DNA of 64,000 bases from a virus. The first letter of the stretch is position 1; every line of letters begins with the position of its first letter. The notes under the pieces were generated by a model, which was not told where the DNA came from, searched no databases, and saw only the letters and a program-made list of their open reading frames with translations. Made by a program: the position numbers and the translations under genes. Shown here piece after piece: positions 3,593 to 34,777 of this stretch. The stretch covers positions 64,285 through 128,284 of the IMG/VR virus record IMGVR_UViG_3300026538_000054; one strand, given 5' to 3'.

Positions 3593-6500
3593 ATGGCTAA
3601 CCTACCGCCGCTTCAAGGCCCCGTCTCCGCGACGCCGTCAGGCCATGGCGCCCCTGTGACCATGCGGGCCTTTGACGATCACGCCGCGACCAGGGAGGCC
3701 ATTTATTCCAAGACCCTGAAGGCCCTGGAGAAACTGCCGCCTGTCGAGAACGCGCGACACTCCTTGCGCGTCGAGAGGCCCGCCTACGCAGGCCCCGGCA
3801 TGGTCTCCCTGGCCGAGCAAAACAGGGCCATTCTTGAAGGGCGGTCGCTTTTTCGCCGGCTCAAAGGCGACGTGGTCCTCACGGACAAGGCCACGGGCAA
3901 GGAGCTCGACCGAAAGAACGTGACCATCGCCCAGGTGCCCATGTACACCCAACGCGGCACGTTCATCTTTAACGGTTCTGAAAATGGATTGTCACACCAA
4001 TTGAGGCTGCAGTCAGGCATCTACGCCCGAATACGCAGCACGGGCGAGGCGGAGTCGCACGTCAATGTACGGCCAGGCAAAGGCCTCTCTCACCGCTACT
4101 TCCTGGACCCGGAGACCGGCCTCTTCAAGCTCCAGGCTGGACAGGCCTCTGTGCCCCTGGTCACCGTGCTGCGCGCGATGGGTGCGACAGACAGGGAGCT
4201 GCAAGAGGCCTGGGGCCGAGAGCTCTTCTCCGTTAACGCCAAGAAGGACGACCCGCGCTCCATCGAGAAGCTCTACGAGAAGCTGGAGCGACGCCCTGAC
4301 AAGCAAGCCCCTGCCGAGGGCAAGCGCCTCAGGGTGGCCGAGCTCATGGCGAAGATGGAGCTTGACCCCGAGGTCACGAAGCGGACGCTGGGCCATCCCC
4401 ATGCCACCCTGAGCAAGGAGACCATCCTGGCCGCCACCAGGAAGTTGCTCCGAGTGGCCAGGGACGAAGAAGAGCCGGACGACCGAGATCACCTGGCCTA
4501 TCAGACCTTCCACGGCCCGGAGGACATGATCGCGGAGAGGGCTGAGCGGTCATCGCCCCTGTTCCACCAGCTTTTGTGGAAGGCGACGCGCACGGGCAAG
4601 CTGGACCATGTTCAGCCCAACTTCCTGTCCAAACATGTTCAAGGGGCCATCCTTGACTCAGGCATTGGTAACAACCTGGAAGAAATTAACCCATTAGAGT
4701 TCCTTAACAACGCGCACAAGATAACTCGTATGGGCCGAGGCGGCATCGCCTCAATTGACAGTATACCTTCGTCCAGTAGAGCGGTTCACTCGAGTCACGT
4801 CGGTTTCATTGACCTGGTCTCGACCCCGGAAAGTCAACGTGCCGGCGTAGACACTCGCGCCGGGTTCAAGGCCCTGAAGGGCGACGACGGCCGGCTCTAC
4901 ACGCCGGTACACAACGCCAGGACTGGCAAGGAAGAGCTCAAAAGCCCGCAGGACCTGGCGGACGCCGTCCTCGCCTTCCCAGGGCAAATGCAAACCGGCA
5001 AGAAGCGCGTGACCGCCCTGGTCAAGGGCAGGGCGACCAGTGTGCCTCGCGAAGAGGTGGATTATGCCCTGCCCCACATGGAGCACGCCTTCACACCTAC
5101 GTCCAACCTGGTCCCGCTCAAGGCCATGAGCAAGGGCCAGCGGGTGAGCATGGGTGGTCGGTTCCTGGTTCAGTCCGTGGCGCTCAAGGACGGTGAAGCG
5201 CCCCTGGTCCAGGGCCTTGTTCCCGGCACCAACAAGTCCTTTGAAGAGCTCTACGGACGCCACGTCGGCGCTGTCCATGCCAGAGATGATCAAGGCGGTC
5301 GCGTGGTGAAAGTTACGCCCGACGGCATCACGGTCAAGTACGACGACGGCAAGACCGAAGAACACGAACTGTACAATCACTTCGTACTGAACAGGAAATC
5401 GCTTCTGCACAATACGCCAGTGGTGCGAGAAGGTGACAGGATTGAAGCGGGCCGTCCGCTGGCGAAGTCCAACTATACCGATGCCCAGGGCCGCGTGGCT
5501 GTCGGTAAGAACCTGCGCACGGCGTACATCGCACATGGTGGAGGTTCTTCCGCGAACTACGAGGATGCCTGGGTCATCAGCGAGTCGGCGGCCAAGAAGT
5601 TCACCAGCGACCACGCCTACCAGCACGCGATCGAGTGGGAAGACAACCACAAGCGCGGCAAGCGCACCTACCAGGCGCTCTTCCCTACGAAGTACGACCG
5701 AAAGACGTTGGAGCTCCTGGACGAAGATGGCGTGATCAAGCCAGGGACCAAGGTTGAGTCCGGTACGCCCCTGGTCCTGGCCGCCAGTCAGAAAGACCCT
5801 GATCGCAAGACCGTTCACCAGAGTAGAGGCGGTGGCTTCTCAGACGCTTCTCTTGTCTGGGACCACCACGCTCCTGGAGAGGTGGTCAGCGTCGCCAAGA
5901 CGGACAAGGGCGTCAACGTTGTAGTTAGGTCATTTAATACGACTGAGATAGCGGACAAACTTTGTTACGACCCTGAGACGGAGGTGCTGACCAGCCGCGG
6001 CTGGGCGCGCGTAGCTGAGCTAACCACCGCCGACGAGGTCGCCACGTTGGGGCCAGAGGACCGGATCGAGTACCTCCAGCCTGTCGGTATCCACCGCTAC
6101 CACCACATCGGCCGGATGTATCGGCTGGAGACGACGCAGATCGATCTACTGGTCACCGAGAACCATCACCTGTACGCCTGCCGCAGGAATCGGTCTGAGT
6201 ACTCTCTCCAGACTGCGTCCGAGCTATTCGGGAAGACGTTTCGGCTGAAACGAGACGGCGTGTGGACTGGCGCCTCGCCGGACTTCGTCAAGATGCCGGA
6301 CCTCGTTGTTAAGGCTGGGCAGTTCGGCCACGGTGAGCGCGCCCTGGATGGGCCGAGCTTGCCGACCGACGTGTTTGTCATGCTACTCGGGATGTACCTG
6401 TCGGAGGGCTGTACGTTCAACCAGCCGAGCTACGGGTCGTACGGCATCGATATTACGCAGATCAATCCTGGCGGGCGCGCCAAGCTGTTTCCGGCGCTGG

Positions 6501-9097
6501 ATGCCGCTGGTCTGAAGTACAACGCCACGTCGAACGGCGCGCGAATCTATAGCAAGTCGTTGATGGCCTATTTCAACCAGTTTGGGCGCGCCAAGGACAA
6601 GTTCATCCCTGAAGAGGTGTTTTTCTGGGCCACGGAGCACCTCAAGTCTCTTTACTACTGGCTCATGTGGGGCGATGGCTGTGAGGGTGGTACGGGCCAC
6701 TCTTACTGCACCACGTCGCCTCGACTGGCCGACGACTTTCAACGGCTCCTGCTCCACATCGGGATGTCAGGCAACATCAAGAGGGTCGAAGCCAGGCGCG
6801 GCGTGATCAAGGGCAAGGAGTACGACTTCGCCCCTCGCTACGACGTTTCTGTCTTCCGGTCGAAAAACAGGCCAGAGATCAATCACGGTCACTGGAAGAC
6901 CCAAAACGGGCAGAGAGAGGCCTGGGAGGAGTACTCAGGCGAGGTCTTCTGTCCGCAAATGCCGAAGAACCACGTCATCTATGTCCGCCGAAACGGCAAG
7001 CCGGTCTGGTGCGGCAACAGCGGGCTTTACGGAGACAAAGGTGTTATATCGGGAATCATGAAAGATGATGAGATGCCTCATGATGAGAATGGCAAACCAT
7101 TTGAGATGCTAGCTAATCCTTTAGGAGTTATATCAAGAATTAACGCTAGCCAGGTGGCAGCGGCTGTCCTGGGCAAGATCGCCCAGAAGACGGGCCAGCC
7201 GTACAAGGTGGAGGACTTCCCTCACGACAAAGAGGACATCACGGGCTGGGTGCAGCAAGAAGCCAAGAAGCACGGCGTCAAGGACCTGGAGACGGTGATC
7301 GATCCTGTGACAGGGAAGCGCATTCCCAACGTGTTGACAGGCGTTCGCTACTATATGAAACTACACCACTCGGCTGAGGGAAAGGCTTCTGCGAGGGGCC
7401 TTGGCGCCTACGACGCTGAAGGAACGCCTGCGCGAGGCCCTGGCGAGGCGGCTCAGGCCAAGCGACTGGCGCTCATGGAGACGAACGCGCTGCTCAGCCA
7501 TTCCGCGCTTGACGTCCTCAAGGACGCCAGATTGGTTCGCGGTAACCAGAACGTCGAGCTCTGGGCGAGCTACATGGGCGGTGACCACCCGTCGACGCCG
7601 CCGGTGCCTTTTGTCTTTCAGAAGTTCGTGAATCAGCTCAAGGCCGCGGGCGTGAACGTGACGCGCAAGGGTGCGCAGACCAGGATCACCGCCCTGACCG
7701 ACAAGGACATTGATGAGCTGGCGGGCGACAGGGAGCTGGGAAACGCCGAGACAGTCCACTGGGGCGAGGACATGCGGCCTGTCAAGGGCGGCCTGTTCGA
7801 CGAGCAACTCACGGGTGGTCACACGGGCCAGAAGTGGGTGAAATTGGTTCTTGCCGAGCCGATGCTGAACCCGGTGATGGAAGAGCCAGCCCGTCGCCTC
7901 CTAGGCCTGACCCAGGCGCAGCTCGAGAGCGTGATCAAAGGAGAGCGAGAGCTTCAGGGCAAGAAGGGCCCGGAGGCCATCTCGCACGCGCTTGCGTCTA
8001 TCAACCTGGAGAAGGGCATCTCGCGCGCCAGGGCGGATATCGCTTCGGGCAGGAAGACCTTGCGAGACGACGCCGTCAAGCGGCTGAGCTACCTGAAAGC
8101 GGCGCAGTCTACTGGCGTTCACCCTGGCGACTGGGTACTGAAGGCCGCCCCTGTTCTTCCTCCTATCTTCAGGCCGGTCTCCGTGATGCAGGGCACGGGC
8201 GGCACTCTGATTGCTGACGCCAACGTGCTCTATCGCGACTTGTTCGAGTCGAACCAGGTCCTCAAGGGCCTGAAGGGGCAGGTTGACGACACCGGTGCCG
8301 AGATGTTGTCGGTCTACAACGCGCTCAAGGCCGTTCAGGGGCTGGGTGATCCCGTCAACGCCAAGACGCAAGAGAAGAAGGTCAAGGGCCTTCTGGACAC
8401 GGTCTTCGGCTCTTCCAGCAAGCACTCCGTGGTGCAGTCGAGGCTCATTGGTACGCCTGTCAACAACGTGGGTAGGGGCGTGGTGATCCCTGACGCCGAT
8501 CTGGACATGGATGAGGTAGGCATACCGGAGGCCCACGCCTGGAAGGTCTACGAGCCTTCGCTCATCAGGTCGCTTGTCCGTCGCGGCATGGGCCGTGTTG
8601 ACGCCCTGGCCCACGTCAGGGACAAGAGCGATGTCGCTAGGCAGGCCCTTCTGGCCGAGACGGAGAAGGGGCCGATTCTGATGACCAGGGCCCCTGTGCT
8701 TCATCGCTTTGGCATCTTGGCCTTGCTGCCGCGGCTGGTAAAGGGTGACGCTGTTAAGGTTAATCCTTACATAGTGGCAGGCCAGGGCATGGACTTTGAC
8801 GGTGATGCTGTCAACTATCATCTCCCTTTAACGCAAGAAGCTAAGCAAGAGGCTATGGAGAAGATGCTGCCCAGCAAGAGCCTTCTCGCCGTGAGCGACC
8901 TACACACACCGATGTTCAACGTCCGCCAGGAGTTCCAGGCCGGTCTCTACCGCATGACCCACGCCGAGAACAAAGAGAAGCGAGCGCGCACCTTCGCGAC
9001 CATGAAGGACCTTCACAAGGCCTACCTGCGCGGCGAGATCGAGGCGGACGATCCGGTGACGGTCATGGACCATGGCGGCCAGAGCGGTGCGAAGTAG
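3593..9097 (+). CDS. phage multisubunit DNA-directed RNA polymerase, fused beta + N-terminal beta' chain, intein-containing
   Basis: beta motifs GTFIFNGSE, HSSHVGFIDLVSTPES, NYEDAWVISES, DKL/SGLYGDKGVI, NPLGVISRIN, YYMKLHH; beta' motifs GGLFD, PVLPPIFRP, RAPVLHR and catalytic DFDGD at 8792-8806. Confidence 0.95.
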   Translation: MANLPPLQGPVSATPSGHGAPVTMRAFDDHAATREAIYSKTLKALEKLPPVENARHSLRVERPAYAGPGMVSLAEQNRAILEGRSLFRRLKGDVVLTDKATGKELDRKNVTIAQVPMYTQRGTFIFNGSENGLSHQLRLQSGIYARIRSTGEAESHVNVRPGKGLSHRYFLDPETGLFKLQAGQASVPLVTVLRAMGATDRELQEAWGRELFSVNAKKDDPRSIEKLYEKLERRPDKQAPAEGKRLRVAELMAKMELDPEVTKRTLGHPHATLSKETILAATRKLLRVARDEEEPDDRDHLAYQTFHGPEDMIAERAERSSPLFHQLLWKATRTGKLDHVQPNFLSKHVQGAILDSGIGNNLEEINPLEFLNNAHKITRMGRGGIASIDSIPSSSRAVHSSHVGFIDLVSTPESQRAGVDTRAGFKALKGDDGRLYTPVHNARTGKEELKSPQDLADAVLAFPGQMQTGKKRVTALVKGRATSVPREEVDYALPHMEHAFTPTSNLVPLKAMSKGQRVSMGGRFLVQSVALKDGEAPLVQGLVPGTNKSFEELYGRHVGAVHARDDQGGRVVKVTPDGITVKYDDGKTEEHELYNHFVLNRKSLLHNTPVVREGDRIEAGRPLAKSNYTDAQGRVAVGKNLRTAYIAHGGGSSANYEDAWVISESAAKKFTSDHAYQHAIEWEDNHKRGKRTYQALFPTKYDRKTLELLDEDGVIKPGTKVESGTPLVLAASQKDPDRKTVHQSRGGGFSDASLVWDHHAPGEVVSVAKTDKGVNVVVRSFNTTEIADKLCYDPETEVLTSRGWARVAELTTADEVATLGPEDRIEYLQPVGIHRYHHIGRMYRLETTQIDLLVTENHHLYACRRNRSEYSLQTASELFGKTFRLKRDGVWTGASPDFVKMPDLVVKAGQFGHGERALDGPSLPTDVFVMLLGMYLSEGCTFNQPSYGSYGIDITQINPGGRAKLFPALDAAGLKYNATSNGARIYSKSLMAYFNQFGRAKDKFIPEEVFFWATEHLKSLYYWLMWGDGCEGGTGHSYCTTSPRLADDFQRLLLHIGMSGNIKRVEARRGVIKGKEYDFAPRYDVSVFRSKNRPEINHGHWKTQNGQREAWEEYSGEVFCPQMPKNHVIYVRRNGKPVWCGNSGLYGDKGVISGIMKDDEMPHDENGKPFEMLANPLGVISRINASQVAAAVLGKIAQKTGQPYKVEDFPHDKEDITGWVQQEAKKHGVKDLETVIDPVTGKRIPNVLTGVRYYMKLHHSAEGKASARGLGAYDAEGTPARGPGEAAQAKRLALMETNALLSHSALDVLKDARLVRGNQNVELWASYMGGDHPSTPPVPFVFQKFVNQLKAAGVNVTRKGAQTRITALTDKDIDELAGDRELGNAETVHWGEDMRPVKGGLFDEQLTGGHTGQKWVKLVLAEPMLNPVMEEPARRLLGLTQAQLESVIKGERELQGKKGPEAISHALASINLEKGISRARADIASGRKTLRDDAVKRLSYLKAAQSTGVHPGDWVLKAAPVLPPIFRPVSVMQGTGGTLIADANVLYRDLFESNQVLKGLKGQVDDTGAEMLSVYNALKAVQGLGDPVNAKTQEKKVKGLLDTVFGSSSKHSVVQSRLIGTPVNNVGRGVVIPDADLDMDEVGIPEAHAWKVYEPSLIRSLVRRGMGRVDALAHVRDKSDVARQALLAETEKGPILMTRAPVLHRFGILALLPRLVKGDAVKVNPYIVAGQGMDFDGDAVNYHLPLTQEAKQEAMEKMLPSKSLLAVSDLHTPMFNVRQEFQAGLYRMTHAENKEKRARTFATMKDLHKAYLRGEIEADDPVTVMDHGGQSGAK
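5963..7018 (+). mobile_element. intein with LAGLIDADG homing endonuclease (352 aa) in RNAP beta
   Basis: starts CYDPETEVLT, block B VTENH, LLGMYLSEG and WLMWGDG motifs, ends WCGN|S; removal restores DKL-SGLYGDKGVI. Confidence 0.93.
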
Positions 9098-9156: not shown

Positions 9157-9225
9157 GCCAATAGCTAAAAGAAAACGGCGGGATGGCGCTTGCGCGCCAC
9201 CTCCCGACCGTCTTCATCCTGCGCT
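9157..9225 (-). terminator. intrinsic terminator, duplicated unit copy 1
   Basis: minus strand GC stem with GCAA loop followed by TTTTCTTTT, right after the Csx15-like stop; 67/69 identical to 9777-9845. Confidence 0.8.
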
Positions 9226-9574
9226 ACCAGGCCCCACCCATTTTCCTCATCGAGGGCGCTGCGGCGTAGGCCCTGGCCTTGAGCCGCAGAGACCTAGGGA
9301 AGTAGCCGGACCGGCCGTCGATCTCGGCCAGGATCGCGTCGGCGAGGGAGGAGCAGACGGGAAGCACCAGGGCGAAGCGATTGGCCTGCCACTGACTGCC
9401 GCTCCACCCGACCTGATCCACCATCGCCTTCGCCTGCGGCCCGAAAGGCGCAGTGACGTCGGCCTGACATTCGATGTTTTTCACTTCCTGGTCGCGCGCG
9501 ACCAGGTGGGGGCTTTCGGTGATCGCCTTCAGGGAGGCGGCGGTCAACGGGTGACGGAAATTGAGAATGATCAT
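9224..9574 (-). CDS. csx15: Csx15-like protein (CRISPR-associated ring-nuclease family)
   Basis: MIILNFRHPLT...F..Q...MVD.VG....WQ...LVLP...LAEIDGRSGYFP..LRL matches the Csx15 pattern as I recall it (NFSHPLT...WQ...LAELHGR.GYFP); RBS AAAGGAG. Confidence 0.75.
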   Translation of the reverse strand: MIILNFRHPLTAASLKAITESPHLVARDQEVKNIECQADVTAPFGPQAKAMVDQVGWSGSQWQANRFALVLPVCSSLADAILAEIDGRSGYFPRSLRLKARAYAAAPSMRKMGGAW

Positions 9575-9586
9575 AAAAGCTCCTTT

Positions 9587-9681
9587 ATCGGCGCGGGCAC
9601 GCGAAAGTTCGCATGGCTACCCGCTCCTCACTACATATTGACGCAATTTATGTCATAATTAAGTTCTTATGCGCGGCGGCA
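9587..9681 (-). promoter_or_regulatory. duplicated AT-rich promoter-like element plus leader hairpin, copy 1
   Basis: 91/95 identical to 10773-10867; directly upstream of a minus-strand gene; AT-rich core CATAAGAACTTAATTA...AAATTGCGTCAATAT. Confidence 0.7.
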
Positions 9682-9776: not shown

Positions 9777-9845
9777 GCCAATAGCTAAAAGAAAACGGCG
9801 GGATGGCGCTTGCGCGCCACTTCCCGACCGTCTTCGTCCTGCGCT
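9777..9845 (-). terminator. intrinsic terminator, duplicated unit copy 2
   Basis: near-identical to 9157-9225. Confidence 0.8.
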
Positions 9846-9849
9846 GTCT

Positions 9850-9886
9850 GGCGCAGCATTCAGCCCGCTGCGCAGGGCTGCTTCAC
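9850..9886 (-). repeat. 37-bp pseudoknot/CRISPR-repeat-like element
   Basis: GTGAAGCAGCCCTGCGCAGCGGGCTGAATGCTGCGCC; contains the stop codon of the 9883..10353 gene. Confidence 0.85.
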
Positions 9887-10353
9887 TCGACGCGGCCCCA
9901 CCGCCTGATAGCGGCGCCCCAGCGAGACGTGGAGCCGCAACAGGACGTGGGCGGATCATCCACCAGTCTAGGGCCTACCGTCGGCCCAACGCCTTGGGCA
10001 TAGACAGATATCCATTTCTGCTTCATGAACAACTCGGCCTCCGGTCCCTGGTCGTTGACCTGGGACCGGCGATCCACGATCTCAGGCCGGCGAGTCGGGC
10101 CTTCGTCCGCTTCCTGCTCCGAGTGAGCCTCGGCGTCGAGCACGCTGATCCTGGACTGCACACGGTCGTTGTGCAGGCAACTCGCCGCCTTCAGAGCCGC
10201 CAGCCGGACGAACTCCTCGCGCTGAGCCCGACACTTGGCCTTGTCGAGCTGGTCGCAGAGGCCCTCGAACACGCCGATGACGATCAACGCCAGCGCGGCG
10301 ATGACCAACAGAGAGCCGATGATCTCCACGAAGATGGCGGATTTCTTGTTCAT
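9883..10353 (-). CDS. hypothetical membrane-anchored protein
   Basis: start MNKKSAIF after GAAAGGGAG; N-terminal TM helix IIGSLLVIAALALIVIGVF. Confidence 0.65.
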   Translation of the reverse strand: MNKKSAIFVEIIGSLLVIAALALIVIGVFEGLCDQLDKAKCRAQREEFVRLAALKAASCLHNDRVQSRISVLDAEAHSEQEADEGPTRRPEIVDRRSQVNDQGPEAELFMKQKWISVYAQGVGPTVGPRLVDDPPTSCCGSTSRWGAAIRRWGRVE

Positions 10354-10467: not shown

Positions 10468-10752
10468 TCAGCTCGCGATGGCCGCGAGCCTGGAAGGGGA
10501 GCGCAGCCCGCGCCTCTCGCGCAGTCGCGCGCGTAAGCAGTGCAGGGCCGCCTCGTAGCGGCCCGTGCCGTCCAGGGGCTGGTTCAGTCGGTAGGACTCG
10601 ACGACCGCCAGCGCGGCGGTGGCGGCAGCGTCGGCCATGTCGGCCGCATCGAAGTCGACGTCACGGCAGCACGCGGTCGCCGTCTTCTTGATTTTCTCGG
10701 CCGCGATCTCCGCCGACCGCCGACACAGGAACAGGATCTGTTCGCCGAGCAT
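10468..10752 (-). CDS. hypothetical protein (putative early gene)
   Basis: 94-aa ORF downstream of duplicated promoter copy 2, GGAG RBS. Confidence 0.6.
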   Translation of the reverse strand: MLGEQILFLCRRSAEIAAEKIKKTATACCRDVDFDAADMADAAATAALAVVESYRLNQPLDGTGRYEAALHCLRARLRERRGLRSPSRLAAIAS

Positions 10753-10772: not shown

Positions 10773-10867
10773 ATCGGCGCGGGCACGCGAAAGTTCGCAT
10801 GGCTACCCGCGCCTCACTAAATATTGACGCAATTTATGGCCTAATTAAGTTCTTATGCGCGGCGGCA
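10773..10867 (-). promoter_or_regulatory. duplicated AT-rich promoter-like element plus leader hairpin, copy 2
   Basis: 91/95 identical to 9587-9681. Confidence 0.7.
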
Positions 10868-11820: not shown

Positions 11821-11985
11821 AGCGGTTGTCTCCTGTTCTTGAAGCCATCAAAAATACCGCGTGGACTGCACCTGCGTCCGCCTGCTTAATAGGTCTCCAT
11901 TCCGTGTCAATATTTCTTGCCACCGCCTAGATCGTGCTGATACGACCGGTAGCGCGCTCTTGCTATCTTGAACATCCAGCCAGTG

Positions 11986-12022
11986 TTTGCAGCAATAAGC
12001 CCGCTGCAGAGGGCTTTGGTAC
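11986..12022 (-). repeat. 37-bp pseudoknot/CRISPR-repeat-like element
   Basis: GTACCAAAGCCCTCTGCAGCGGGCTTATTGCTGCAAA. Confidence 0.85.
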
Positions 12023-12284: not shown

Positions 12285-13187
12285 ATGACTTTGAGACAAT
12301 GGCTTGATGGCCAGGCCCTGTGGTCGATGTTCACGACGGCCGAGATCAGTGAGCGAAAACAGCGACTTCTGGTCTGTGTGCTGGCCCAAAAAGCGCTGCG
12401 AAAATATAAGGCTAATGCGAGCAGAAAGGCCATCGAGACGTCTCTGCGTTACGCCGACGGCCTGGCTGACTCGGCAGAACTGTACCGAGCCTTTGTCGAG
12501 GCCAGGTCCCTTTGCAACTCGACTTCGCTGCCGCTGTCTAGCTGCAAACTGCTCGCTATGCGCATAGCGGGCTGCTGCGCCAGCTTGTCCCTGACCCACT
12601 TTTTCAGTGACAACTGGTTGCCGGCTCAGGGCGACGTGGGCTGGGAGGCCCTGCGATGTGCCATGCGCGAGGTTGTCGAGGCGCCTTTCGCCCTGAGGCG
12701 ACTGTGCATCTTCAAGCCGTCCAGGAGGCGCGCCGACAGGTTCCTGGCCTCGCTGGTGGAGAGGAATGAAACGACCCAGACGGCAGAGAAGCGCAAGAAA
12801 GGCGTGGCATCTTCCACCCTGGTGGAAGAGAGGTGGAAGAAGGTCGACTGGCTCTCCAGGGCCGCGCTTGACATCGCCAGGTTGATCTACGAAGAAGACC
12901 GCTTCGAGGACCTGCCCATCCTTGCCGACGCCCTGGAAGACGCCGGCTGTACAGAGGAGCACCTGCTCATGCACCTGAGAGGCAAGTCGCAATGCCCCGC
13001 CTGTCTGGAGAGCCGCCAGGCCCTGGCGGCCATCGAGCAAGTGGCTGCGCAGGCACGGTCGAAAGGCGTCAGGACCAGTGGCGCCGGTCAGGTCTCTTGC
13101 AGCGAGTGCAACCAGGGCTGGCGGCCTCTTCAAGGCCCGCACTTCAAGGGCTGCTGGGCCCTTGATCTCATCCTCGGAAAGGAGTGA
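12285..13187 (+). CDS. Gemmata-type paralogous family protein
   Basis: MT..QWL, SERKQRLL..V, IYEEDRFEDLPILADALEDAGC, HLR, HFKGCWALDLILGKE. Confidence 0.85.
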   Translation: MTLRQWLDGQALWSMFTTAEISERKQRLLVCVLAQKALRKYKANASRKAIETSLRYADGLADSAELYRAFVEARSLCNSTSLPLSSCKLLAMRIAGCCASLSLTHFFSDNWLPAQGDVGWEALRCAMREVVEAPFALRRLCIFKPSRRRADRFLASLVERNETTQTAEKRKKGVASSTLVEERWKKVDWLSRAALDIARLIYEEDRFEDLPILADALEDAGCTEEHLLMHLRGKSQCPACLESRQALAAIEQVAAQARSKGVRTSGAGQVSCSECNQGWRPLQGPHFKGCWALDLILGKE

Positions 13188-14977: not shown

Positions 14978-15040
14978 TGGCCGCAAAATGGATGACTAAC
15001 GCCCGGCCTAGACAAGAAGAGAGGCCACGACCATGAGCGA

Positions 15041-15077
15041 TTCGCAGCTTTTAGCCCGCTGCGTAGGGCTTGATCAC
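15041..15077 (-). repeat. 37-bp pseudoknot/CRISPR-repeat-like element
   Basis: GTGATCAAGCCCTACGCAGCGGGCTAAAAGCTGCGAA. Confidence 0.85.
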
Positions 15078-16702: not shown

Positions 16703-17227
16703 ATGAACAACTGGGCCACCATCGACGACCCTTTGGACGAGGAAGAGCGCCGCGCCTTGCTAGCCGCCAAGGACCGCGGTCGTAAGCGCCTGAAGAGCGG
16801 CGTCATGGACATCCGTCCAGACCTGCACGCGGTCGCTCGCGGGGGCCTGGAGGCCGAGGTCCGCCGGCTGCAGCTCCTCGTCTTCCGTCTGCTCAGGGAC
16901 AGGCCGCCCAGCCTTTCTCAGCCCGACGACGCACCCGAGCTGAAAACGCCATGCGCCCAGATGGAGCGGGCCTTGCTTGACGCCATGGCGTTTCTTTCCC
17001 GCTTGTCTGATGCCGACGAGCTGTGCGACCGGATCATCGGTCTCCTGGAGCCGGGGGCGTGCGGTATCGACGGTTGTAAAGACCCAGCGGACCATCTGGT
17101 ATGGGACCGGGTCAAGGAACAGGTAGTTCGTTGCTGCGACAGCCACTCCAACGAGATCCTCGACCAGGAAGGCCCGGAGTACTCCAGTTTCTGCCCCAAC
17201 TGTGGTTGCGACATCCCTATCAACTGA
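16703..17227 (+). CDS. hypothetical protein with C-terminal Cys clusters
   Basis: GGAGG RBS; CGIDGC, CCDSH, CPNCGC. Confidence 0.65.
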   Translation: MNNWATIDDPLDEEERRALLAAKDRGRKRLKSGVMDIRPDLHAVARGGLEAEVRRLQLLVFRLLRDRPPSLSQPDDAPELKTPCAQMERALLDAMAFLSRLSDADELCDRIIGLLEPGACGIDGCKDPADHLVWDRVKEQVVRCCDSHSNEILDQEGPEYSSFCPNCGCDIPIN

Positions 17228-17245
17228 CTCCTGCTAACATCACGG

Positions 17246-17282
17246 GTTGTCAAGCCCGCCGCGGCGGGCCTGTTGCCGCGAC
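17246..17282 (+). repeat. 37-bp pseudoknot/CRISPR-repeat-like element upstream of RNAP beta'-C gene
   Basis: GTTGTCAAGCCCGCCGCGGCGGGCCTGTTGCCGCGAC. Confidence 0.8.
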
Positions 17283-17310
17283 CACCCGATGTGCCACGCG
17301 TGAGAACTTC

Positions 17311-20133
17311 ATGCCCCTTAACAGCACCGCCGGCCAGGCCCTCGTGAACGCCGTCCTCCCTGAGGAACTGCGCAACCACGAGCGCGCCCTGGACAAGAAG
17401 GGCATGGCCTCGCTCATGAAGGAGGTGGCCAGGAAGCACCCTGAGCAGTACCGAGAGGTCCTCTTTCGCCTGGGGAAGCTAGGCCATCTCACCGCCTACC
17501 ACACAGGGTCTCTCTCCTTTGGCCTGGAACACATGCGCACCGCGGTCAGCGCCAGAGACATGAAGAGAAAGCTGCGCCAGGAGATCGATCAGATCTATGA
17601 CCACCGTTCTCTATCTCAAAAAGAGAAAGAACAGAAGATCGTTGAGCTGGTGAGCTCCTATCAAGCTCCTCTCGAGAAGGCCGTCTACGACGAGTCCCTT
17701 GCCGAGGGAAACCCTCTTGCTCTGCAAGTTCTCTCAGGGGCCAGGGGCAACAAGACCAACCTGCGCTCCCTGAGAGGCGCTGATCTTCTCTACGTAGACC
17801 ACAAGGACCAGCCCGTCCCCATCCCTATCTTGCGATCCTACTCCGAGGGCCTGACCCCGGCTGACTACTATGCCGGCAGTTTCGGAGCGCGAAAGGGCGT
17901 CATTGACGTCAAGCAGGGCGTGGCTGATTCGGGCTTCGCCTCCAAGTTGCTCGTCCAGATGTCTCATCGCCTGGTGACCACCTCTCTGGATCATCCCGAG
18001 CCACCCTCTCGTATCAGGGGCCTGCCTGTTGACCTTGACGACCCTGACAACGAAGGTGCTCTCCTCGCCCATGACATAGGGCCGTTCAAGAGAAACACCG
18101 TCCTCACCCCTGACGTGCTTCACCGGCTCAAGCAAGAAGGCCACAAACACCTCCTTGTGAGATCGCCTACCGTCGGCGGCCCGCCTGACGGAGGAGTGTA
18201 CGCCCGTGACGTTGGTATCAGAGAGAAGGGCGTGATATCTCCCGTAGGAGATTTCGTCGGCATCGCCGCCGCACAGGCTCTCTGCCTAGCTGAAGGCACG
18301 TTGGTCACCCTGGCTGATCTCACTTTCAAGCGCATCGAAGAGGTCGCTCCGGGAGACCTTATTCTGGCGGCCAACAGCAAGGGTGAGACCGCTTCGGCCA
18401 AGGTGAACAGACGTTTCCTTAACGGCCCCCGTGCGTGTTTACGTTACTTCTGGTCGAATCAGGAGCATTCTGTTCTTGCCACGAGCGAACACAAAGTGCT
18501 CAGGCCTGACAAGACCGTCAGGCCCTTCGACCAGACCTCCGTGGTCTTGCTTCATACGCCTCAAGGGCCTACTCCAGCCGCCCTGGATGAGCCTCTTCAT
18601 CAAGAGCCAATCATCCTGCCCACCTATGACCTGGAGATCGACCACCCCGAGCATCTCTACGTGCTCAAGGGCGGCTTGATCGTGGCCAACTCTGAGCCTC
18701 TTACCCAGAGCACGCTGGGCAGCAAGCACTCGGGGGGCGTAGCTGGGGCCAAGAAATCAGGGCCTACGGGCTTCAAATTGCTCTCTTGCTTGGGAGAAGG
18801 CACGTTGGTGCGCATGGCCGACGTGCCTTCCAAGGAGATTGAGAAGATCAAGCCGGGTGACAGGGTCATCGGTGCGAACTTGGAGGGGGGATGGTTCCCC
18901 GTCCAGGTCAAGAACGTCTTTGACAACGGCCAGCGCCCTTGTCGCACGTTCACCTTTGAGTCGATGCTTGGTGAGGAGAGCCTCACTGCCACGGACGACC
19001 ATCTCGTACTGGCTCAGGCGCCCTGCTACAAGATCGACAAGACCCTGGCTGACAAGGGCCTGAAACGGTTTGATGAGTGGGAAGGCGGCCTCAAGGTCTC
19101 GCTGGGAGAGATACGCACGGCGCATAACTTGCCTCACCCGTTGGCGCCTGTGGGCTACAGGCCTGTGAAGGCCGCCAAGGAGCCTGGTTCTCCAGGCGTT
19201 CGTGTCGAGCTCCTCTACGCCACCCCTGAGGTGCTTCTCCCTACCTACGACCTGGAGGTGGATCACCCTGACCACCTCTTCGTCCTGGCCAACGGCCTGG
19301 TGGTGAGCAACTCGCAGATTCAGGTTCCCAAGGCCTTCCCATCTGGAGCTTCTCACTCTCAAGAAGATGGCCGCGTGCAAGCCGTCTTCCCTGCGCCCCA
19401 GGGCGGTAACTACGTGCAGGTCAACGGCCACAAGCACTACGTGGCCCCTGGCTTCGACGTCCTGGTCAAGCCAGGCGATGAGGTTGAATCTGGCGATGTT
19501 CTCAGCGAGGGAGTACCGAACCCTGCGGAAGTGGTGGCTCACAAGGGCGTTGGAGAAGGCAGGGCCTACTTCGTCCAGGCGTTCAGAGACTCGTTCAAGC
19601 GCTCAGGCCTGCAGGCGCATCGCCGGAACATCGAGCTGGTCGCCAGGGGCCTGATTGACCATGTCAGGCTTACCGAGGAGCATGGGCACTACTCCCCGGA
19701 TGACGTAGTGCAGTACTCCCGTCTGGAGAGGGACTGGCAGCCAAGAGACGGTGCCAAGGAAAAGGCCCCCAACGAGGCCATGGGGCACTACCTGGAAGCG
19801 CCGGTGCTGCACTACTCCATCGGGACGAAGATCAGGCCCAGCGTGGTGAAGCGCCTGTCTCAGTTCGGCGTCAAGAGCGTGTTGGTGCATCAGCAACCAC
19901 CGCCTTTTGAGCCTGAAATGGTCAGGGGGATGGAGAACCTGACCCATGACCCCGACTGGATGACGAGATTTCTGGGGCCTTATGTGAAAAAGAACTTCCT
20001 GAAGGGCGTTGCCAGGGGTGACATCTCCGACGAGGCCGGAAGCAGCTACGTCCCTTCTCTGGCCAGGGGAGCGGACTTCAACCGTCTGCCGCCTGTCAAG
20101 GGCTTTGACCCCAGGTCTCTGGGCCAGCTCTAA
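17311..20133 (+). CDS. phage RNA polymerase beta' C-terminal chain with two mini-inteins
   Basis: SGARGN, SYSEGLT..DYY...GARKG.ID.K...ADSG (bridge helix), VRSP, VGIAAAQAL|SEPLTQSTLGSKHSGG (trigger loop), HRRNIELVAR; ATG 17311 preferred over 17101. Confidence 0.93.
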   Translation: MPLNSTAGQALVNAVLPEELRNHERALDKKGMASLMKEVARKHPEQYREVLFRLGKLGHLTAYHTGSLSFGLEHMRTAVSARDMKRKLRQEIDQIYDHRSLSQKEKEQKIVELVSSYQAPLEKAVYDESLAEGNPLALQVLSGARGNKTNLRSLRGADLLYVDHKDQPVPIPILRSYSEGLTPADYYAGSFGARKGVIDVKQGVADSGFASKLLVQMSHRLVTTSLDHPEPPSRIRGLPVDLDDPDNEGALLAHDIGPFKRNTVLTPDVLHRLKQEGHKHLLVRSPTVGGPPDGGVYARDVGIREKGVISPVGDFVGIAAAQALCLAEGTLVTLADLTFKRIEEVAPGDLILAANSKGETASAKVNRRFLNGPRACLRYFWSNQEHSVLATSEHKVLRPDKTVRPFDQTSVVLLHTPQGPTPAALDEPLHQEPIILPTYDLEIDHPEHLYVLKGGLIVANSEPLTQSTLGSKHSGGVAGAKKSGPTGFKLLSCLGEGTLVRMADVPSKEIEKIKPGDRVIGANLEGGWFPVQVKNVFDNGQRPCRTFTFESMLGEESLTATDDHLVLAQAPCYKIDKTLADKGLKRFDEWEGGLKVSLGEIRTAHNLPHPLAPVGYRPVKAAKEPGSPGVRVELLYATPEVLLPTYDLEVDHPDHLFVLANGLVVSNSQIQVPKAFPSGASHSQEDGRVQAVFPAPQGGNYVQVNGHKHYVAPGFDVLVKPGDEVESGDVLSEGVPNPAEVVAHKGVGEGRAYFVQAFRDSFKRSGLQAHRRNIELVARGLIDHVRLTEEHGHYSPDDVVQYSRLERDWQPRDGAKEKAPNEAMGHYLEAPVLHYSIGTKIRPSVVKRLSQFGVKSVLVHQQPPPFEPEMVRGMENLTHDPDWMTRFLGPYVKKNFLKGVARGDISDEAGSSYVPSLARGADFNRLPPVKGFDPRSLGQL
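18283..18690 (+). mobile_element. mini-intein (136 aa, no endonuclease)
   Basis: CLAEGTLV...ATSEHKV...TYDLEIDHPEHLYVLKGGLIVAN|S. Confidence 0.9.
18787..19311 (+). mobile_element. mini-intein (175 aa, no endonuclease)
   Basis: CLGEGTLV...ATDDHLV...TYDLEVDHPDHLFVLANGLVVSN|S. Confidence 0.9.
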
Positions 20134-20162
20134 GCCCTGCGCAGCGGGCTAAATGCTGCGAC
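20126..20162 (+). repeat. 37-bp pseudoknot/CRISPR-repeat-like element overlapping RNAP beta'-C stop codon
   Basis: AGCTCTAAGCCCTGCGCAGCGGGCTAAATGCTGCGAC. Confidence 0.85.
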
Positions 20163-20219
20163 TTTCCGATGTGCCGTGTCTACCCTTGTCTGTTGCGCTA
20201 CAGCGCGGAGGAAATTGCG

Positions 20220-20576
20220 ATGGATGGCTTTGGCCTGGTTCTCGGGCATCTGCTGGGCGACTACATTTTTCAAAACGACTGGATGGCCGCCAACAAGACC
20301 TCCCGTTCGTTCCCGTGCGCCGTTCACTGCACGGCGTACACGCTGGCCGTATGGCTCTGCTCCTTCTGGTGGCTACCTATCTGGGCGCTTGCGGTCATCT
20401 GGCTAGCCCACTTCCCGCTCGACCGCTGGCGGCTGGCAAAGCTCTGGATGGAACGAGTTTCCGGGCAGACCAAGTTCGCTTCGGCACCAGGTCTGGCTCC
20501 CTGGTCCGTCATCGTGGTGGACAACACCATGCACCTGACCGTGCTGTTCTTGCTGGGCGTGTTCGTCCAGGGGTGA
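20220..20576 (+). CDS. DUF3307-like membrane protein
   Basis: GHLLGDYIFQNDWMA..K, HC..Y, HFPLD, VDNTMHL; GGAGG RBS. Confidence 0.8.
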   Translation: MDGFGLVLGHLLGDYIFQNDWMAANKTSRSFPCAVHCTAYTLAVWLCSFWWLPIWALAVIWLAHFPLDRWRLAKLWMERVSGQTKFASAPGLAPWSVIVVDNTMHLTVLFLLGVFVQG

Positions 20577-20577
20577 T

Positions 20578-20667
20578 TCGTCTGAGCCCTGCGCGGCGGG
20601 CTAAATGCCGCGACTAGCCGAGCTGCCGCCCTGTACCAGGCCTCCGCAGCGGCCTTATTGCTGCGGC
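20578..20667 (+). repeat. two tandem 37-bp pseudoknot elements separated by 16 bp
   Basis: 20578-20614 TCGTCTGAGCCCTGCGCGGCGGGCTAAATGCCGCGAC; 20631-20667 CTGTACCAGGCCTCCGCAGCGGCCTTATTGCTGCGGC (compensatory stem change). Confidence 0.8.
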
Positions 20668-23865: not shown

Positions 23866-24067
23866 ATGCCGTCGGCGCTGCGCTAAATGCCGCAACTCGA
23901 CCTTGCACACTCGCTCGCGGGCCAGTAGCATGATGGTGCTCGGAGTGCGTGTTGAGCAGGACAGAGGAAGAAGCCTAGTAGTGTAAGCCGTTCCCCGCGC
24001 GGACAGAGCGCCGCCAATAGTGGGCCGCGTCGAACAGCTACCCGACGACCTGACCGACGAGCAGAAC

Positions 24068-24308
24068 GAGCAAAAGCCCTGTGCAGCGGGCTGGATGCTG
24101 CAACTCTAGCAGTTGGGGCCAGGACAGGCCTTGCTACACGTACTGAAGCCCTATACAGCGGGCTGATAGCTGTAGCACGGCGAGCGCGTCGACGCCGAGT
24201 GGTCAACGCACTGAAGCCCTCTGCGGCGGGCTGAATGCTGCAACTGGAAGTAGTTGTTCGACAAGGTGGTCGCACCGAAGCCCTCTATAGTGGGCTGAAA
24301 GCTGCAGC
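24068..24308 (+). CRISPR. degenerate CRISPR-like mini-array: four 37-bp repeats with 35, 31 and 27 bp spacers
   Basis: repeats at 24068, 24140, 24208, 24272; consensus G(C/T)AC(C/T)GAAGCCCTCTGCAGCGGGCTGAA(A/T)GCTGCAAC; unique spacers; no adjacent cas gene. Confidence 0.6.
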
Positions 24309-24342
24309 AGGAGACCGAGAGCTTGGCGGCCCGGCCCATACC

Positions 24343-24597
24343 ATGTCTACACGCACCATCACCGTCCACGATCGATGTACAAAATGCAACCGCACGCTCC
24401 ACTTCATATCCGAAGGCGAGCGAGGCGTGTGCGGTCCTTGCTGGGTGGCCTCTCTCGCGCCCGAGACCAAGAAGGCCATAAATCGCGTGATCGCCAGCGC
24501 CTTCAACGGCAGCGGCGAAGAAGAGAAGAGCCAGGCCGTTGATGGGGCCATGAAGGCCCTCCAGCAAGAAGACAAGAAGCCCTCTGCAGCGGGCTGA
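24343..24597 (+). CDS. small Zn-finger protein embedded between repeats
   Basis: CTKCNRTL...RGVCGPCW; stop codon supplied by repeat copy 24571-24607. Confidence 0.65.
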   Translation: MSTRTITVHDRCTKCNRTLHFISEGERGVCGPCWVASLAPETKKAINRVIASAFNGSGEEEKSQAVDGAMKALQQEDKKPSAAG

Positions 24598-24665
24598 AAG
24601 CTGCAACTGGAAATACTCAAGCATGGGAGTGCCAAAGCCCTCTGTAGCGGGCTAAAAGCTGCGAC
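24571..24665 (+). CRISPR. two further 37-bp repeats with a 21-bp spacer
   Basis: GACAAGAAGCCCTCTGCAGCGGGCTGAAAGCTGCAAC and GTGCCAAAGCCCTCTGTAGCGGGCTAAAAGCTGCGAC. Confidence 0.55.
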
Positions 24666-27396: not shown

Positions 27397-27803
27397 ACGT
27401 TTACATCTACTGCGGCGAGCTCTACTGCGAGGCGTGCGGCAACGTCATGCGCGACGCCTTGAAGAGGATCGGCCGCGCCCCTGCCAACCCTGACGACGAG
27501 ACGAGCTACGATTCTGACTTCTACCCCAAGGGCCCCTACGCCGATGCGGGGGGCGAATCAGACGTCGTTCACCACTGCGGCAGCGACCACAAGTGTCGCG
27601 AGCCTGTCGAGATCGGTGGTAGCCGCTACGGAAAGTTCCTCGAAAACGCCTTGACGACGGCCGGCGTCGCGGAGCTCGAGAGGATGCTTGCGGAAGACCT
27701 GGCCAGTCAGGCCGACCCGGTCCTACAGTTCTGGGCGGACTACTACCGGAAGGCCGGATACGACATTCGGCAATACGAGAAAGGGAAGCAGGAAGAGAGA
27801 TGA
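27393..27803 (+). CDS. hypothetical protein
   Basis: YCEACG, YDSDFYPKGP, GGESD..HCG; coupled. Confidence 0.7.
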   Translation: MNVYIYCGELYCEACGNVMRDALKRIGRAPANPDDETSYDSDFYPKGPYADAGGESDVVHHCGSDHKCREPVEIGGSRYGKFLENALTTAGVAELERMLAEDLASQADPVLQFWADYYRKAGYDIRQYEKGKQEER

Positions 27804-28606
27804 CAGAGGCCCAGTGGCTTGAGAGCAAAGACCCTTTCGACCTGTTTATGGTGGCGTCCAGCGACGCGCCGGCAAGAAGAAGCGATAGAGAACTGCGTCT
27901 TTTCGCCTGCGCCTGCTGCCGTAGCGTTTGGCACTTGCTTGGCGACGAGAGAAGCAGGCGCGTGGTCGAGGTCGCCGAGAGGTTTGCCGACGGCGAGGTG
28001 AGCAGAGAGGAACTGGGCAGGGCACTCGTCTGCGGCCCTGGTGGTTTCGTTAGCCACTCTCAGCGCACGGACGAACTGGTGCGGCTGTTCTACGCCACGG
28101 CCGAGCCCGGCTTCTTCGTCTTCGCCGGACAACTGCGCAACCTTGGCCGCGGCTGGGAGGGCGAGATGCCGGACAGTGACTGGCACGAGCGCTGGCTGCC
28201 CGTGTGGGCCAACTTGCTCAGGGACGTGGTCGGCAACCCCTTCAGCCCACTCCCTGTCAAGGTGGGCCTTTATCAACCATCCGAAGAGATCACCCGCCTG
28301 GCCACGACGGCCTACGAAGAGCGCTGCCCTGTGTCGGGCGCACTGGAGCCTGCGCGACTCGCCATCCTCGCTGATGCCGTTGAAGAAGCAGGCTGCACGG
28401 AAGAGTTATTGCTTCATCACCTTCGCGACATGGAGCCGTGCCAGGAGAGGACCAGCCAGGGCTACGAGTGCAAGAACGGGCAGCTCTTCTACCTCAACTC
28501 AGGCGGCGCGACTTACCATCGCTGTAAAGGGACAGGCTGGATGCGTCATCGCGGTGCTCACGTTCGTGGCTGCTGGGCCCTGGATCTCATCCTGGGAAAG
28601 GAGTGA
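27800..28606 (+). CDS. Gemmata-type paralogous family protein
   Basis: MTEAQWLESKDP, SDRELRLFACACCR, AVEVAERFADG-like, LLRDVVGNPF, LAILADAVEEAGC, HVRGCWALDLILGKE. Confidence 0.9.
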   Translation: MTEAQWLESKDPFDLFMVASSDAPARRSDRELRLFACACCRSVWHLLGDERSRRVVEVAERFADGEVSREELGRALVCGPGGFVSHSQRTDELVRLFYATAEPGFFVFAGQLRNLGRGWEGEMPDSDWHERWLPVWANLLRDVVGNPFSPLPVKVGLYQPSEEITRLATTAYEERCPVSGALEPARLAILADAVEEAGCTEELLLHHLRDMEPCQERTSQGYECKNGQLFYLNSGGATYHRCKGTGWMRHRGAHVRGCWALDLILGKE

Positions 28607-28610
28607 CCAC

Positions 28611-29507
28611 TTGACCGAGCGAGAGTGGCTGGGGAGCACGCGGCCCGAGAAGTTACTACGGTGGCTTGACAGTACGACCAGAGCGGACCGCAAGCCCACT
28701 CACAGGGGCATGCGTCTTTTCGTATGCGCCTGTTGCCGCAGCCTGTGGGACAAGTTGAAAGACCAACGACTTCGCGACTCGGTGGAGACCGCCGAGCTTT
28801 TCGCCGATGGCGAGGCTACGGAAAGGCAGTTGGAGCTTGCACACAAAATGGCCTGCCCGGCGGTTAGCAAAACGCATAGTAGCGCGCCTAACGAGTATTT
28901 TTGCGTCTGGGCCGCCCTGATGACGTCGAAGCCTGGTGACCGGTTCCATGACTTCCTAACCGAGCTTGAGCGCTGCCCCTCTGATGATCACCCCCTGCCA
29001 AAGGCGACGCAGCTTGAGTTGATCCGAGAGATCTTCGGCAATCCTTTCCGGCCGGCCATTGCGGACTGCAACGAGGCCCTGGACGGCTCGTGCGAGGCTC
29101 ACGGCTGCGACTTCCAGAAGACAGGCGAGGCCACGTCCATATGCCCTGGCGGCAGAGGATGGTTTCGTACACGAATCGCCTGTACACCTACTGTTCGTGA
29201 TCTTGCGTTAGCCAGCTACATGGATCGGTCCAGCCAGGATCGTGCTGAGCTCGACCCTTCCAGGCTCCTGGTCCTCGCAGACGCCCTGGAGGAAGCGGGC
29301 ATGCGGCCCGTTACCGGCCGTACCGTCTCTCAGGTCGTCCAAGCAAGACAACAAGCCGTCATGGGCGGCTGCTGTGAGCGCTTCGCTGATCACTCGGCTT
29401 GTGACTGCCTGGAGCTGGCCGTTCCTGACGGCGTGCTTGAGCACCTGCGCTCGCCTGGTCCCCACTACCGCGGGTGCTGGGCGCTTGACTTCGTCCTGGG
29501 CAGGTAG
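28611..29507 (+). CDS. Gemmata-type paralogous family protein
   Basis: TTG start LTEREWL; RLFVCACCR, IREIFGNPFRP, LADALEEAG, HYRGCWALDFVLGR. Confidence 0.88.
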   Translation: MTEREWLGSTRPEKLLRWLDSTTRADRKPTHRGMRLFVCACCRSLWDKLKDQRLRDSVETAELFADGEATERQLELAHKMACPAVSKTHSSAPNEYFCVWAALMTSKPGDRFHDFLTELERCPSDDHPLPKATQLELIREIFGNPFRPAIADCNEALDGSCEAHGCDFQKTGEATSICPGGRGWFRTRIACTPTVRDLALASYMDRSSQDRAELDPSRLLVLADALEEAGMRPVTGRTVSQVVQARQQAVMGGCCERFADHSACDCLELAVPDGVLEHLRSPGPHYRGCWALDFVLGR

Positions 29508-33668: not shown

Positions 33669-33908
33669 ATGCACGAAGAACAGGTCGCTGAACAACCAGA
33701 GAAAACCACGCAGAAAGAACAGGGCGCCGAACACCACTTGACCACCGCCGGCGTGTCCCAGGCGTTGCTCGAGGCTGGCAAGGCCCAGGGCCTCGACCCG
33801 GCCGCCGTCCTGGCCTTGTTAACGCAGTTCGCCCCGCTCGTCTTGCAGATAATAACGGCGCTTCAGGAGATCCTGAAGAGTAGGCAGCAGTCGCCTCCGG
33901 CACCGTGA
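33669..33908 (+). CDS. small hydrophobic protein, paralog A
   Basis: EHHLTTAGVSQA...LALLTQFAPLVLQIITALQEILK. Confidence 0.7.
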   Translation: MHEEQVAEQPEKTTQKEQGAEHHLTTAGVSQALLEAGKAQGLDPAAVLALLTQFAPLVLQIITALQEILKSRQQSPPAP

Positions 33909-33970: not shown

Positions 33971-34007
33971 CAGCAAGGCCCTGGAGGTTCTCTCCAGGGC
34001 CTTGCTG
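33971..34007. repeat. 16-bp-stem hairpin, copy 1
   Basis: CAGCAAGGCCCTGGAG-GTTCT-CTCCAGGGCCTTGCTG. Confidence 0.85.
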
Positions 34008-34088
34008 ATATCCGGACAGACCGCTGAACATAGTTCAGCGGTCTGTCCGGGGCGCTTCCCTTTCGCCTTTTTCGAGAGAAAGTGACTT

Positions 34089-34756: not shown

Positions 34757-34777
34757 ACGGGCTGCCGTGCGCGAACT

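Follow-up and report, generated by a model that had tools for sequence, protein, structure and literature searches.

A C-terminally truncated Csx15-family protein of a large tailed phage, a candidate non-cutting binder of cyclic oligonucleotides

What does a stand-alone Csx15-like gene do in a virus? The question is raised by a stretch of 64,000 nucleotides (positions 64,285 to 128,284 of the IMG/VR virus record IMGVR_UViG_3300026538_000054; below, the window), which is part of C51, one of the 107 contigs in an assembly of 5.39 Mb. The csx15-like gene occupies positions 9224-9574 of the minus strand; its ATG start codon is at 9574, and its product has 116 amino acids (aa). The initial annotation, made from the sequence alone, had proposed a co-opted anti-defense protein, a ring nuclease or a sponge, directed against type III CRISPR systems and their cyclic oligoadenylate (cOA) signal. 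Our analysis tentatively favors a non-catalytic, non-polymerizing binder of cyclic oligonucleotides that would serve the phage as a counter-defense accessory.

Family membership and loss of the C-terminal part

The open reading frame (ORF) was assigned by profile, PDB-sequence and alignment evidence. The profile comparison with Csx15 suggested in the initial annotation gave a match above the curated cut-off and bore out the Csx15-like identity: the NCBIfam profile NF040560 (CAS_Csx15) scores 72.9 bits on the protein (cut-off 35; E value 2.5e-20) over residues 2-102 (profile positions 1-99 of 125). A six-frame search of the genome with the Csx15 profile gave 71.6 bits, and the family profile built from homologues scores the protein at 117 bits, while nothing significant was obtained from Pfam and PHROGs. 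The closest PDB sequence match is 9ylu (CbCash), with an E value of 1.1e-6, followed by 9teu (csx15), with 2.8e-4; the homologue profile matches 9teu (E 5e-31), 9ylu (6e-31) and 9tet (2e-6). The protein belongs to the Csx15 family, far beyond chance. The G+C content at third codon positions is 0.84 in the csx15-like gene and 0.71-0.91 in the genes of the phage.

The ESM Atlas model of the exact protein has a predicted template modeling (TM) score of 0.62 and a predicted local distance difference test (pLDDT) value of 0.67, and it resembles Csx15 clusters with TM scores of 0.75-0.77 over residues 1-104, both sides being predicted. One Csx15 cluster of the Atlas, with 86 members and a representative of 95 aa, is listed there with a TM score of 0.90 and may hint at other short Csx15 forms. 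A weaker look-alike in the same resource is the viral family Pam3_gp32 (PF23992; feature score 0.86, TM 0.53).

A word-based protein search for relatives returned the phage protein alone; the exhaustive search of representatives gave 295 matches, the closest with 47% identity. Among INPHARED phages no match was found by tblastn, nor by megablast of the first 20 kb, and IMG/VR contained no close relative of the csx15-like protein or of the neighboring RNA polymerase C-terminus; records of the present genome may be missing from these collections.

The published biochemistry of the family, in the available parts of the sources, defines which residues matter. Csx15 dimers stack head to tail with cyclic tetra-adenylate (cA4) sandwiched between them (10.64898/2026.10.26.761840; 10.64898/2026.01.21.700848); the head face gives H8 and F106, and the tail face gives R118, R122 and R125, plus H90 and H82 in CliCsx15 and PfCsx15, respectively. 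In HaCsx15, the substitutions H8A and R125A abolish catalysis with cA4 binding kept, and R118A causes the loss of binding, catalysis and cA4-induced assembly (10.64898/2026.10.26.761840). CliCsx15 H90A has very low ring-nuclease activity and no cA4-induced oligomerization (10.64898/2026.01.21.700848). The HaCsx15 crystal contains one cA4 per dimer, held in the head pocket without tail contact; the Csx15 dimer is structurally equivalent to the SAVED monomer, and both form ligand-sandwiching head-to-tail filaments (10.64898/2026.10.26.761840). According to the same preprint, the family includes fast ring nucleases of broad specificity, which also cut the signals of cyclic-oligonucleotide-based antiphage signaling systems (CBASS). 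In CbCash filaments, cA4 touches its own dimer only (PMC13462974).

These residues were placed, via 9teu (chain number minus 7 gives H13, H90 and Y113), on an alignment of 115 stand-alone homologues, which includes the phage protein and represents the 95-150 aa subset of 151 proteins. The phage protein has kept Asn5, Phe6, His8, Pro9, Leu10 and Thr11 (NFRHPLT, in the family motif NFxHPLT), Asp39, Gln47, Trp62-Gln63, Pro72, Ala83-Glu84, Gly87-Arg88, Gly90, Phe92-Pro93 and Arg97. Of the 21 core sites within residues 1-100 that 70% or more of the homologues have in common, it retains 19, the family mean being 18.1. His8 corresponds to the catalytic His of the head face (H8 in HaCsx15 and CsCsx15, H13 in CliCsx15, H11 in PfCsx15); it pairs with chain residue 20 of 9teu, and its column is occupied by His in 106 of the 115 aligned sequences.

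The tail face is altered. The replacement of the usual LAELHGR by LAEIDGR (residues 82-88), noticed in the initial annotation, is real: Asp86 aligns with the tail-face His, H90 of CliCsx15 and H82 of PfCsx15, in the alignments to both 9teu and the family. At this position, 90 of the 115 sequences have His, 7 have Glu, 4 have Ala and 3, the phage protein included, have Asp. Arg7, located just before His8 at the site of S9 in PfCsx15, is unique among the 115, where Ser, Ala or Gly is otherwise found, and Gln14 of the family is Ser in the phage protein.

That annotation overlooked a larger defect, namely, that the protein stops before strand beta5 and helix alpha5. In the alignment to the family it ends about 20-25 residues early, and approximately the last fifth is absent. 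In homologues, Ala-Ala-Pro-Ser is followed by an aromatic residue, then by beta5 and then by alpha5 carrying R-D-x-A-R-x-R-R (R118/R122/R125 in HaCsx15). The phage protein ends with nine unrelated residues and has no sequence counterpart of beta5 or alpha5. The helix with the Arg triad (R118/R122/R125 in HaCsx15; R116/R120/R123 in PfCsx15) is absent from it. The adenine-stacking aromatic residue (F106 in HaCsx15 and PfCsx15, Y113 in CliCsx15, F275 in CbCash) is Phe, Tyr or Trp in 102 of the 115 sequences at family column 109.

For comparison, 80 metagenomic loci were fetched by similarity to residues 1-107, and 76 of them are complete at the 3' end. All 76 complete homologues reach at least profile position 125 of 136, none being truncated alike, and all 76 possess the second His. 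Both His residues, the aromatic residue and the Arg motif are kept in 11 of 12 IMG/VR loci (9 of 10 distinct proteins), whose nearest proteins are 33-37% identical to the phage protein. In one IMG/VR locus (L002), the neighbors, judged by eye from ORF translations, are RusA-like, helicase, methyltransferase and primase genes.

Several ways of restoring the missing end were tried and rejected. The gene is followed by a repeated terminator module, B1 (9158-9225, minus strand), through which the -1 frame runs past about position 9265; by eye this frame resembled the Arg helix, and the two differences between B1 and its copy B2 are synonymous in it, but the profile scored it at -1.7 bits. Joining the frames with X at any of 25 junctions gained at most 1.3 bits, a value equaled by 32 of 300 shuffled tails. 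Read-through of the TAG stop yields an unrelated peptide, and a C-terminal-only profile, used to look for a detached end encoded at another site of the phage, gave as its best match (E 0.059) a wrong, Arg-rich frame of the very same gene. Nor is there support for an assembly error: Logan unitigs over 9171-9616 are identical in runs X3 and X4, which belong to two studies, with no indel listed in the gene, and run X5, of a third study, covers 9292-9616 identically. The Logan evidence consists of assembled unitigs rather than reads, and X3 and X4 are possibly source samples, X5 not being flagged so. The C-terminal truncation is taken to be real, neither a frameshift nor an assembly error being supported.

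The TAG stop lies across the edge of module B: its T is unique sequence, and its AG forms the first two bases of the repeat B1. Such an overlap is compatible with the loss of the 3' end in the recombination that brought in the terminator module, although an overlap of two bases may also be a coincidence.

Expression signals, phage and defense context

A Shine-Dalgarno-like AAAGGAG, read from the sequence, is located at 9580-9586 on the minus strand, 5 nt upstream of the ATG. It is preceded by promoter-leader module A1 (95 nt, 9587-9681, minus strand), which contains the bipartite motif CTTAA-N15-CGTCAATAT at 9635-9663; the core of A1 (9630-9665) has 25% G+C in a genome of 63% G+C. A scan for the sigma-70 consensus found no promoter, because the hexamers of the motif are too distant from that consensus. 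The promoter-like element of the initial annotation is nevertheless present in A1 as a phage-specific bipartite motif, and the terminator is borne out too: B1 folds into a long hairpin with an energy of -50.1 kcal/mol (z -5.3), and a U-run comes after it.

In its general form, CTWAA-N15-YGTCAATAT, the motif occurs in 9 copies on C51 and in none on the other 5.2 Mb of the assembly. All nine YGTCAATAT on C51 bear the first half at the fixed distance, and the second half alone is found 14 times in the other 5.2 Mb. The window contains three copies (9635-9663 and 10821-10849 on the minus strand, 11885-11913 on the plus strand) versus 0.02 expected, and six more are located elsewhere on C51; five copies run on into TCTCTTGCCGC. 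The motif is arranged like a -35 box and an extended -10 box with a 17-nt spacer in between. It probably represents one temporal promoter class of the phage, and the csx15-like gene belongs to this small phage-specific class.

The same modules frame the neighboring cassette on the minus strand. Module A2 (10773-10867), 96% identical to A1, drives a gene for a protein of 94 aa (10468-10752) without a family match, whose look-alikes by language model and structure, sigma-70 region 2 proteins, provide no more than a lead, and a gene for a presumably membrane-anchored protein of 156 aa (9883-10353, from ATG 10353) with a hydrophobic N-terminal helix, also without a family match. A copy of a dispersed hairpin repeat of about 30 nt (approximately 9850-9886, minus strand) lies just upstream of terminator module B2 (9778-9845, minus strand), a copy of B1. 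Modules A and B are each present in exactly two copies in the whole assembly, both of them here and at least 96% identical, so that two adjacent minus-strand cassettes possess common promoter-leader and terminator modules and unrelated cargo. No family match was found for the neighbors of the csx15-like gene.

Contig C51 has 199,122 bp, of which the last 100 repeat the first 100, indicating a circle of about 199,022 bp. Its PHROG matches comprise a weak major head match, virion proteins and a baseplate wedge (E 4.8e-20), and it encodes split multisubunit RNA polymerase genes with inteins. The circle, the head, virion and baseplate matches and the RNA polymerase genes together indicate a large tailed phage. 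The Terminase_6N profile matched only other contigs and none of the phage, and most structural ORFs of the phage have no match in Pfam or PHROGs. The stretch was found in 7 runs, from soil metagenomes of four studies, with no RNA run listed among them; run X6 has no coverage of the gene.

RpoB of the bin is 93-95% identical to that of Bradyrhizobium, and the rest of the bin is Bradyrhizobium-like. Nothing was found that ties the phage to the bin, its paralogous gene family (below) and the promoter motif being confined to C51. Since C51 is circular and has this family and motif to itself, the bin is no proven host.

The initial annotation saw no cas operon around the gene, and the assembly agrees with it: no match to Csm1, Cmr2 or Cas1 was found in the 5.39 Mb, nor to the CD-NTase family SMODS. 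On the phage itself, nothing cas-like was found beyond a Cas12-type TNB match below the threshold, in an ORF of 628 aa (C51:139311-141197), about 47 kb away. The phage gene therefore stands without the type III (Cas10) locus with which Csx15 is associated. This association is typical and not obligatory, because about 20-25% of Csx15-bearing genomes have no Cas10; in the available text of the preprint about 80% have it (10.64898/2026.10.26.761840). A sample of 151 genomes of the bacterial family of the bin contained Csm1 in 2 genomes (0 over the cut-off) and Cmr2 in 4 (1 over the cut-off), while SMODS, found in 19 (17 over the cut-off), is commoner than Cas10; Csx15 was found in none of them beyond the present assembly. 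Type III immunity would be the default target, because about 80% of Csx15-bearing genomes carry Cas10.

A proposed non-cutting binder and its alternatives

Starting from the observed family membership, phage context, expression signals and residues present and missing, we infer ligand binding and an effect on immunity along the following lines. A virus-borne Csx15 would be expressed from the phage-specific promoter as part of a small accessory cassette. It would retain the Rossmann-like core and His8 of the head face, and nothing is left of the half of the composite active site that the tail face provides. Its dimer could bind a cyclic oligonucleotide (cA4, possibly cyclic tri-adenylate (cA3) or a cAAG-type molecule) in the head pocket, neither polymerizing nor cutting, and such binding may weaken the response of cOA-activated effectors in type III CRISPR or CBASS; if functional, the protein would most likely act stoichiometrically during infection. 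Since the tail-face residues are all absent, filament-dependent ring-nuclease catalysis should be impossible. Judged from sequence, ring-nuclease activity is unlikely and even binding is uncertain. Of the two activities in the initial annotation, binding rather than cleaving is accordingly the better half, in line with CliCsx15 H90A, and an active nuclease like AcrIII-1 is unlikely, the aromatic residue and the Arg triad being absent.

A number of points weigh against such a binder. The head pocket is only partial: His8 and the new Arg7 are there, while the aromatic lid is gone, family column 109 being occupied by Met109 or by nothing, depending on the alignment, and the profile alignment stopping earlier; the site of L71 in HaCsx15 and F241 in CbCash is Cys74. 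In HaCsx15, R118A alone was enough to lose assembly, and here the whole helix is gone. Loss of beta5 may destabilize the fold, the pLDDT of the Atlas model being 0.67. The assembly yielded no match to Cas10, Cas1 or a CD-NTase. Related phages and close homologues were looked for without success, so that selection on the short form is not measurable. The framing modules are newly duplicated (96%), so the truncation may be young and the core merely undecayed. In the available text of Chi et al. (10.64898/2026.01.21.700848), it is also argued that sponging copes badly with the large amounts of cOA that type III systems produce.

A close rival, somewhat less favored, is that the gene is a recently truncated relic, a formerly complete phage csx15 which lost its 3' end through recombination with module B and whose product would be still expressed but inactive. 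The TAG stop straddling the start of repeat B suggests this, as does the presence of modules A and B in only two copies at least 96% identical, from which it follows that the rearrangement is recent. None of the 76 complete metagenomic homologues lacks the C-terminus, 11 of the 12 IMG/VR loci keep the key residues, residues proven essential are missing here, and no target system was found in the bin. Decay is less easily reconciled with the reading frame, which has no internal stop or frameshift and keeps 19 of the 21 conserved sites, with the gene's own promoter, Shine-Dalgarno site and terminator, and with the identical sequence in soil metagenomes of several studies; the unique Arg7 together with Asp86 could reflect adaptation instead. 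It is improbable, though consistent with the head-to-tail, ligand-sandwiching filaments by which Csx15 and SAVED work, that the protein is a filament cap, a dominant-negative, one-faced subunit that joins cOA-induced assemblies of the Csx15 or SAVED type, stops their growth and blocks activation. With a more basic head face (His8 kept and Arg7 gained) and a tail that is deleted or acidic (Asp86), every tail-face ligand contact being gone, it could in that improbable case act as a chain terminator or a non-polymerizing trap, and such poisoning of assembly would be new. This proposal is purely inferential and would require stacking with unrelated host effectors; cA4 in CbCash contacts its own dimer only, the head-face aromatic residue is missing as well, and blocking a host Csx15 ring nuclease would favor the host signal and not the phage.

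That the protein is an active ring nuclease, a true AcrIII-3 degrading cA4 as HaCsx15 and CsCsx15 do, is very unlikely. Catalytic His8 is present, the family has fast relatives of broad specificity, and viral homologues have been proposed as anti-CRISPRs; yet R125A and R118A in HaCsx15 and H90A in CliCsx15 each cripple catalysis, and all three residues are absent or changed here, with nothing restored by read-through, by the -1 frame (1.3 bits, 32 of 300 shuffles) or by a separate piece (E 0.059). Least credible of all is a role outside host cOA signaling, either as a partner of a putative Cas12m-type system of the phage or as a binder of another nucleotide: the weak Cas12-type match and the dispersed hairpin repeat in the sister cassette point toward it, and a published figure, taken from the available text, gives about 25% of Csx15-bearing genomes without type III CRISPR, but the Cas12-like gene is about 47 kb away and no link between Csx15 and type V was found in the available parts of the published Csx15 work. 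The non-cutting binder remains the tentatively preferred explanation.

Other features of the phage and relation to known systems

Inteins recur in the window. A fused RNA polymerase beta/beta'-like ORF of 1834 aa with an intein-type insert and a LAGLIDADG region is located at 3593-9097, a further beta'-like ORF with a Hint module and an intein-type insert at 17101-20133, and an ORF of 839 aa with Hint and LAGLIDADG matches and an intein-type insert at 48242-50761, all on the plus strand. The paralogous family consists of proteins of about 270-350 aa, encoded on the plus strand at 12285-13187, 27800-28606, 28041-29507, 38419-39474, 39481-40338, 40335-41174 and 41087-41929. Its members have conserved DNA blocks and a common C-terminal end, with no match in Pfam, PHROG or NCBIfam, and tblastn of four of them gave 7-14 matches each on the phage contig and none on other contigs.

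The dispersed hairpin repeat of about 30 nt was found at 1386-1414, 9850-9886 (minus strand), 11987-12022 (minus strand), 15037-15072 (minus strand) and 17254-17282, with further sites at 20134-20667, 23868-24665, 52584-52612 and 54613-54641. Its copies are intergenic; family D2 comprises 14 of them on the plus strand, and the minus strand carries several. Four tandem repeats of 66 nt (22 aa) are present at 59823-60196 inside an ORF of 939 aa (58452-61271, plus strand), the protein of which contains a concanavalin A-like lectin/glucanase domain (Laminin_G_3, E 2.5e-35) and is probably a fibre or receptor-binding protein. A perfect pair of 38-nt inverted repeats, 768 nt apart (33971-34008 and 34777-34814), adjoins a direct repeat of 164 nt with 76% identity (33729-33892 and 34580-34743).

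With regard to known systems, the general idea that viral Csx15 serves as an anti-CRISPR has been published before. In the available parts of these sources, Chi et al. argued that Csx15 is absent from phages and ill suited as an anti-CRISPR (10.64898/2026.01.21.700848), and Klimavicius et al. counted one viral Csx15 in NCBI and more than 20 from metagenomes, chiefly located within prophage regions of IMG/VR, and in their preprint of October 2026 proposed viral Csx15 (vCsx15), from sequences, as AcrIII-3, the third family of ring-nuclease anti-CRISPRs (10.64898/2026.10.26.761840). This preprint was the only source found for AcrIII-3/vCsx15. The phage protein resembles vCsx15 in being stand-alone in a viral genome, with no adjacent cas genes and a proposed anti-cOA role. 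The published examples, as far as the available text goes, are mostly from prophages, whereas the present gene is carried by a circular phage of 199 kb that encodes an RNA polymerase of its own. The Csx15 proteins fetched from IMG/VR are full-length (11 of 12 loci), and the phage protein has Asp for the second His and no beta5 or alpha5.

With the cellular cA4 ring nucleases CliCsx15 (9teu), HaCsx15 and CsCsx15, it shares the core, the His of NFxHPLT and the AE-x-x-GR-x-GYFP motif. It differs from CliCsx15 and HaCsx15 in the replacement of Cli H90 by Asp, in the absence of Cli Y113/Ha F106 and of Ha R118/R122/R125, and in the absence of an adjacent type III locus. PfCsx15 (9tet) was described by Chi et al. 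(10.64898/2026.01.21.700848), in the text available, as an orphan, non-enzymatic cA4 sponge, and the likeness to it lies in the expected binding without cleavage. PfCsx15 keeps H82, F106 and R116/R120/R123 and sequesters cA4 via filaments; these residues are absent from the phage protein, so sandwich sponging of the PfCsx15 type is not possible for it. The sensor domain of CbCash (9ylu; PMC13462974), the best PDB match, is likewise described as non-catalytic, with Gln instead of His at the second His site; it differs in also lacking the first His, in keeping F275 and the C-terminal helix, and in its fusion to a Schlafen nuclease.

AcrIII-1 (Crn2/DUF1874), Acb2 and Tad1/Tad2 are proposed as functional analogues only, no sequence relation to them having been seen in Pfam and PHROGs. 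AcrIII-1 is a fast enzyme, while Acb2 and Tad1/Tad2 are cyclic-nucleotide sponges of phages, which remove the alarm signal. A tail-less Csx15 form was not found in the available main text of the Csx15 literature. The architecture is distinct in that the first His is kept and the tail face deleted, in a complete large phage and under a phage-specific promoter.

The gene represents a natural deletion of exactly the face that mutagenesis has defined as catalytic and filament-forming. If the protein is active, it would separate ligand capture from filament assembly in the Csx15 family and would show the use of a disarmed host regulator by a phage. If it is inactive, the locus would provide a dated case of an accessory gene trimmed by the shuffling of promoter and terminator modules.

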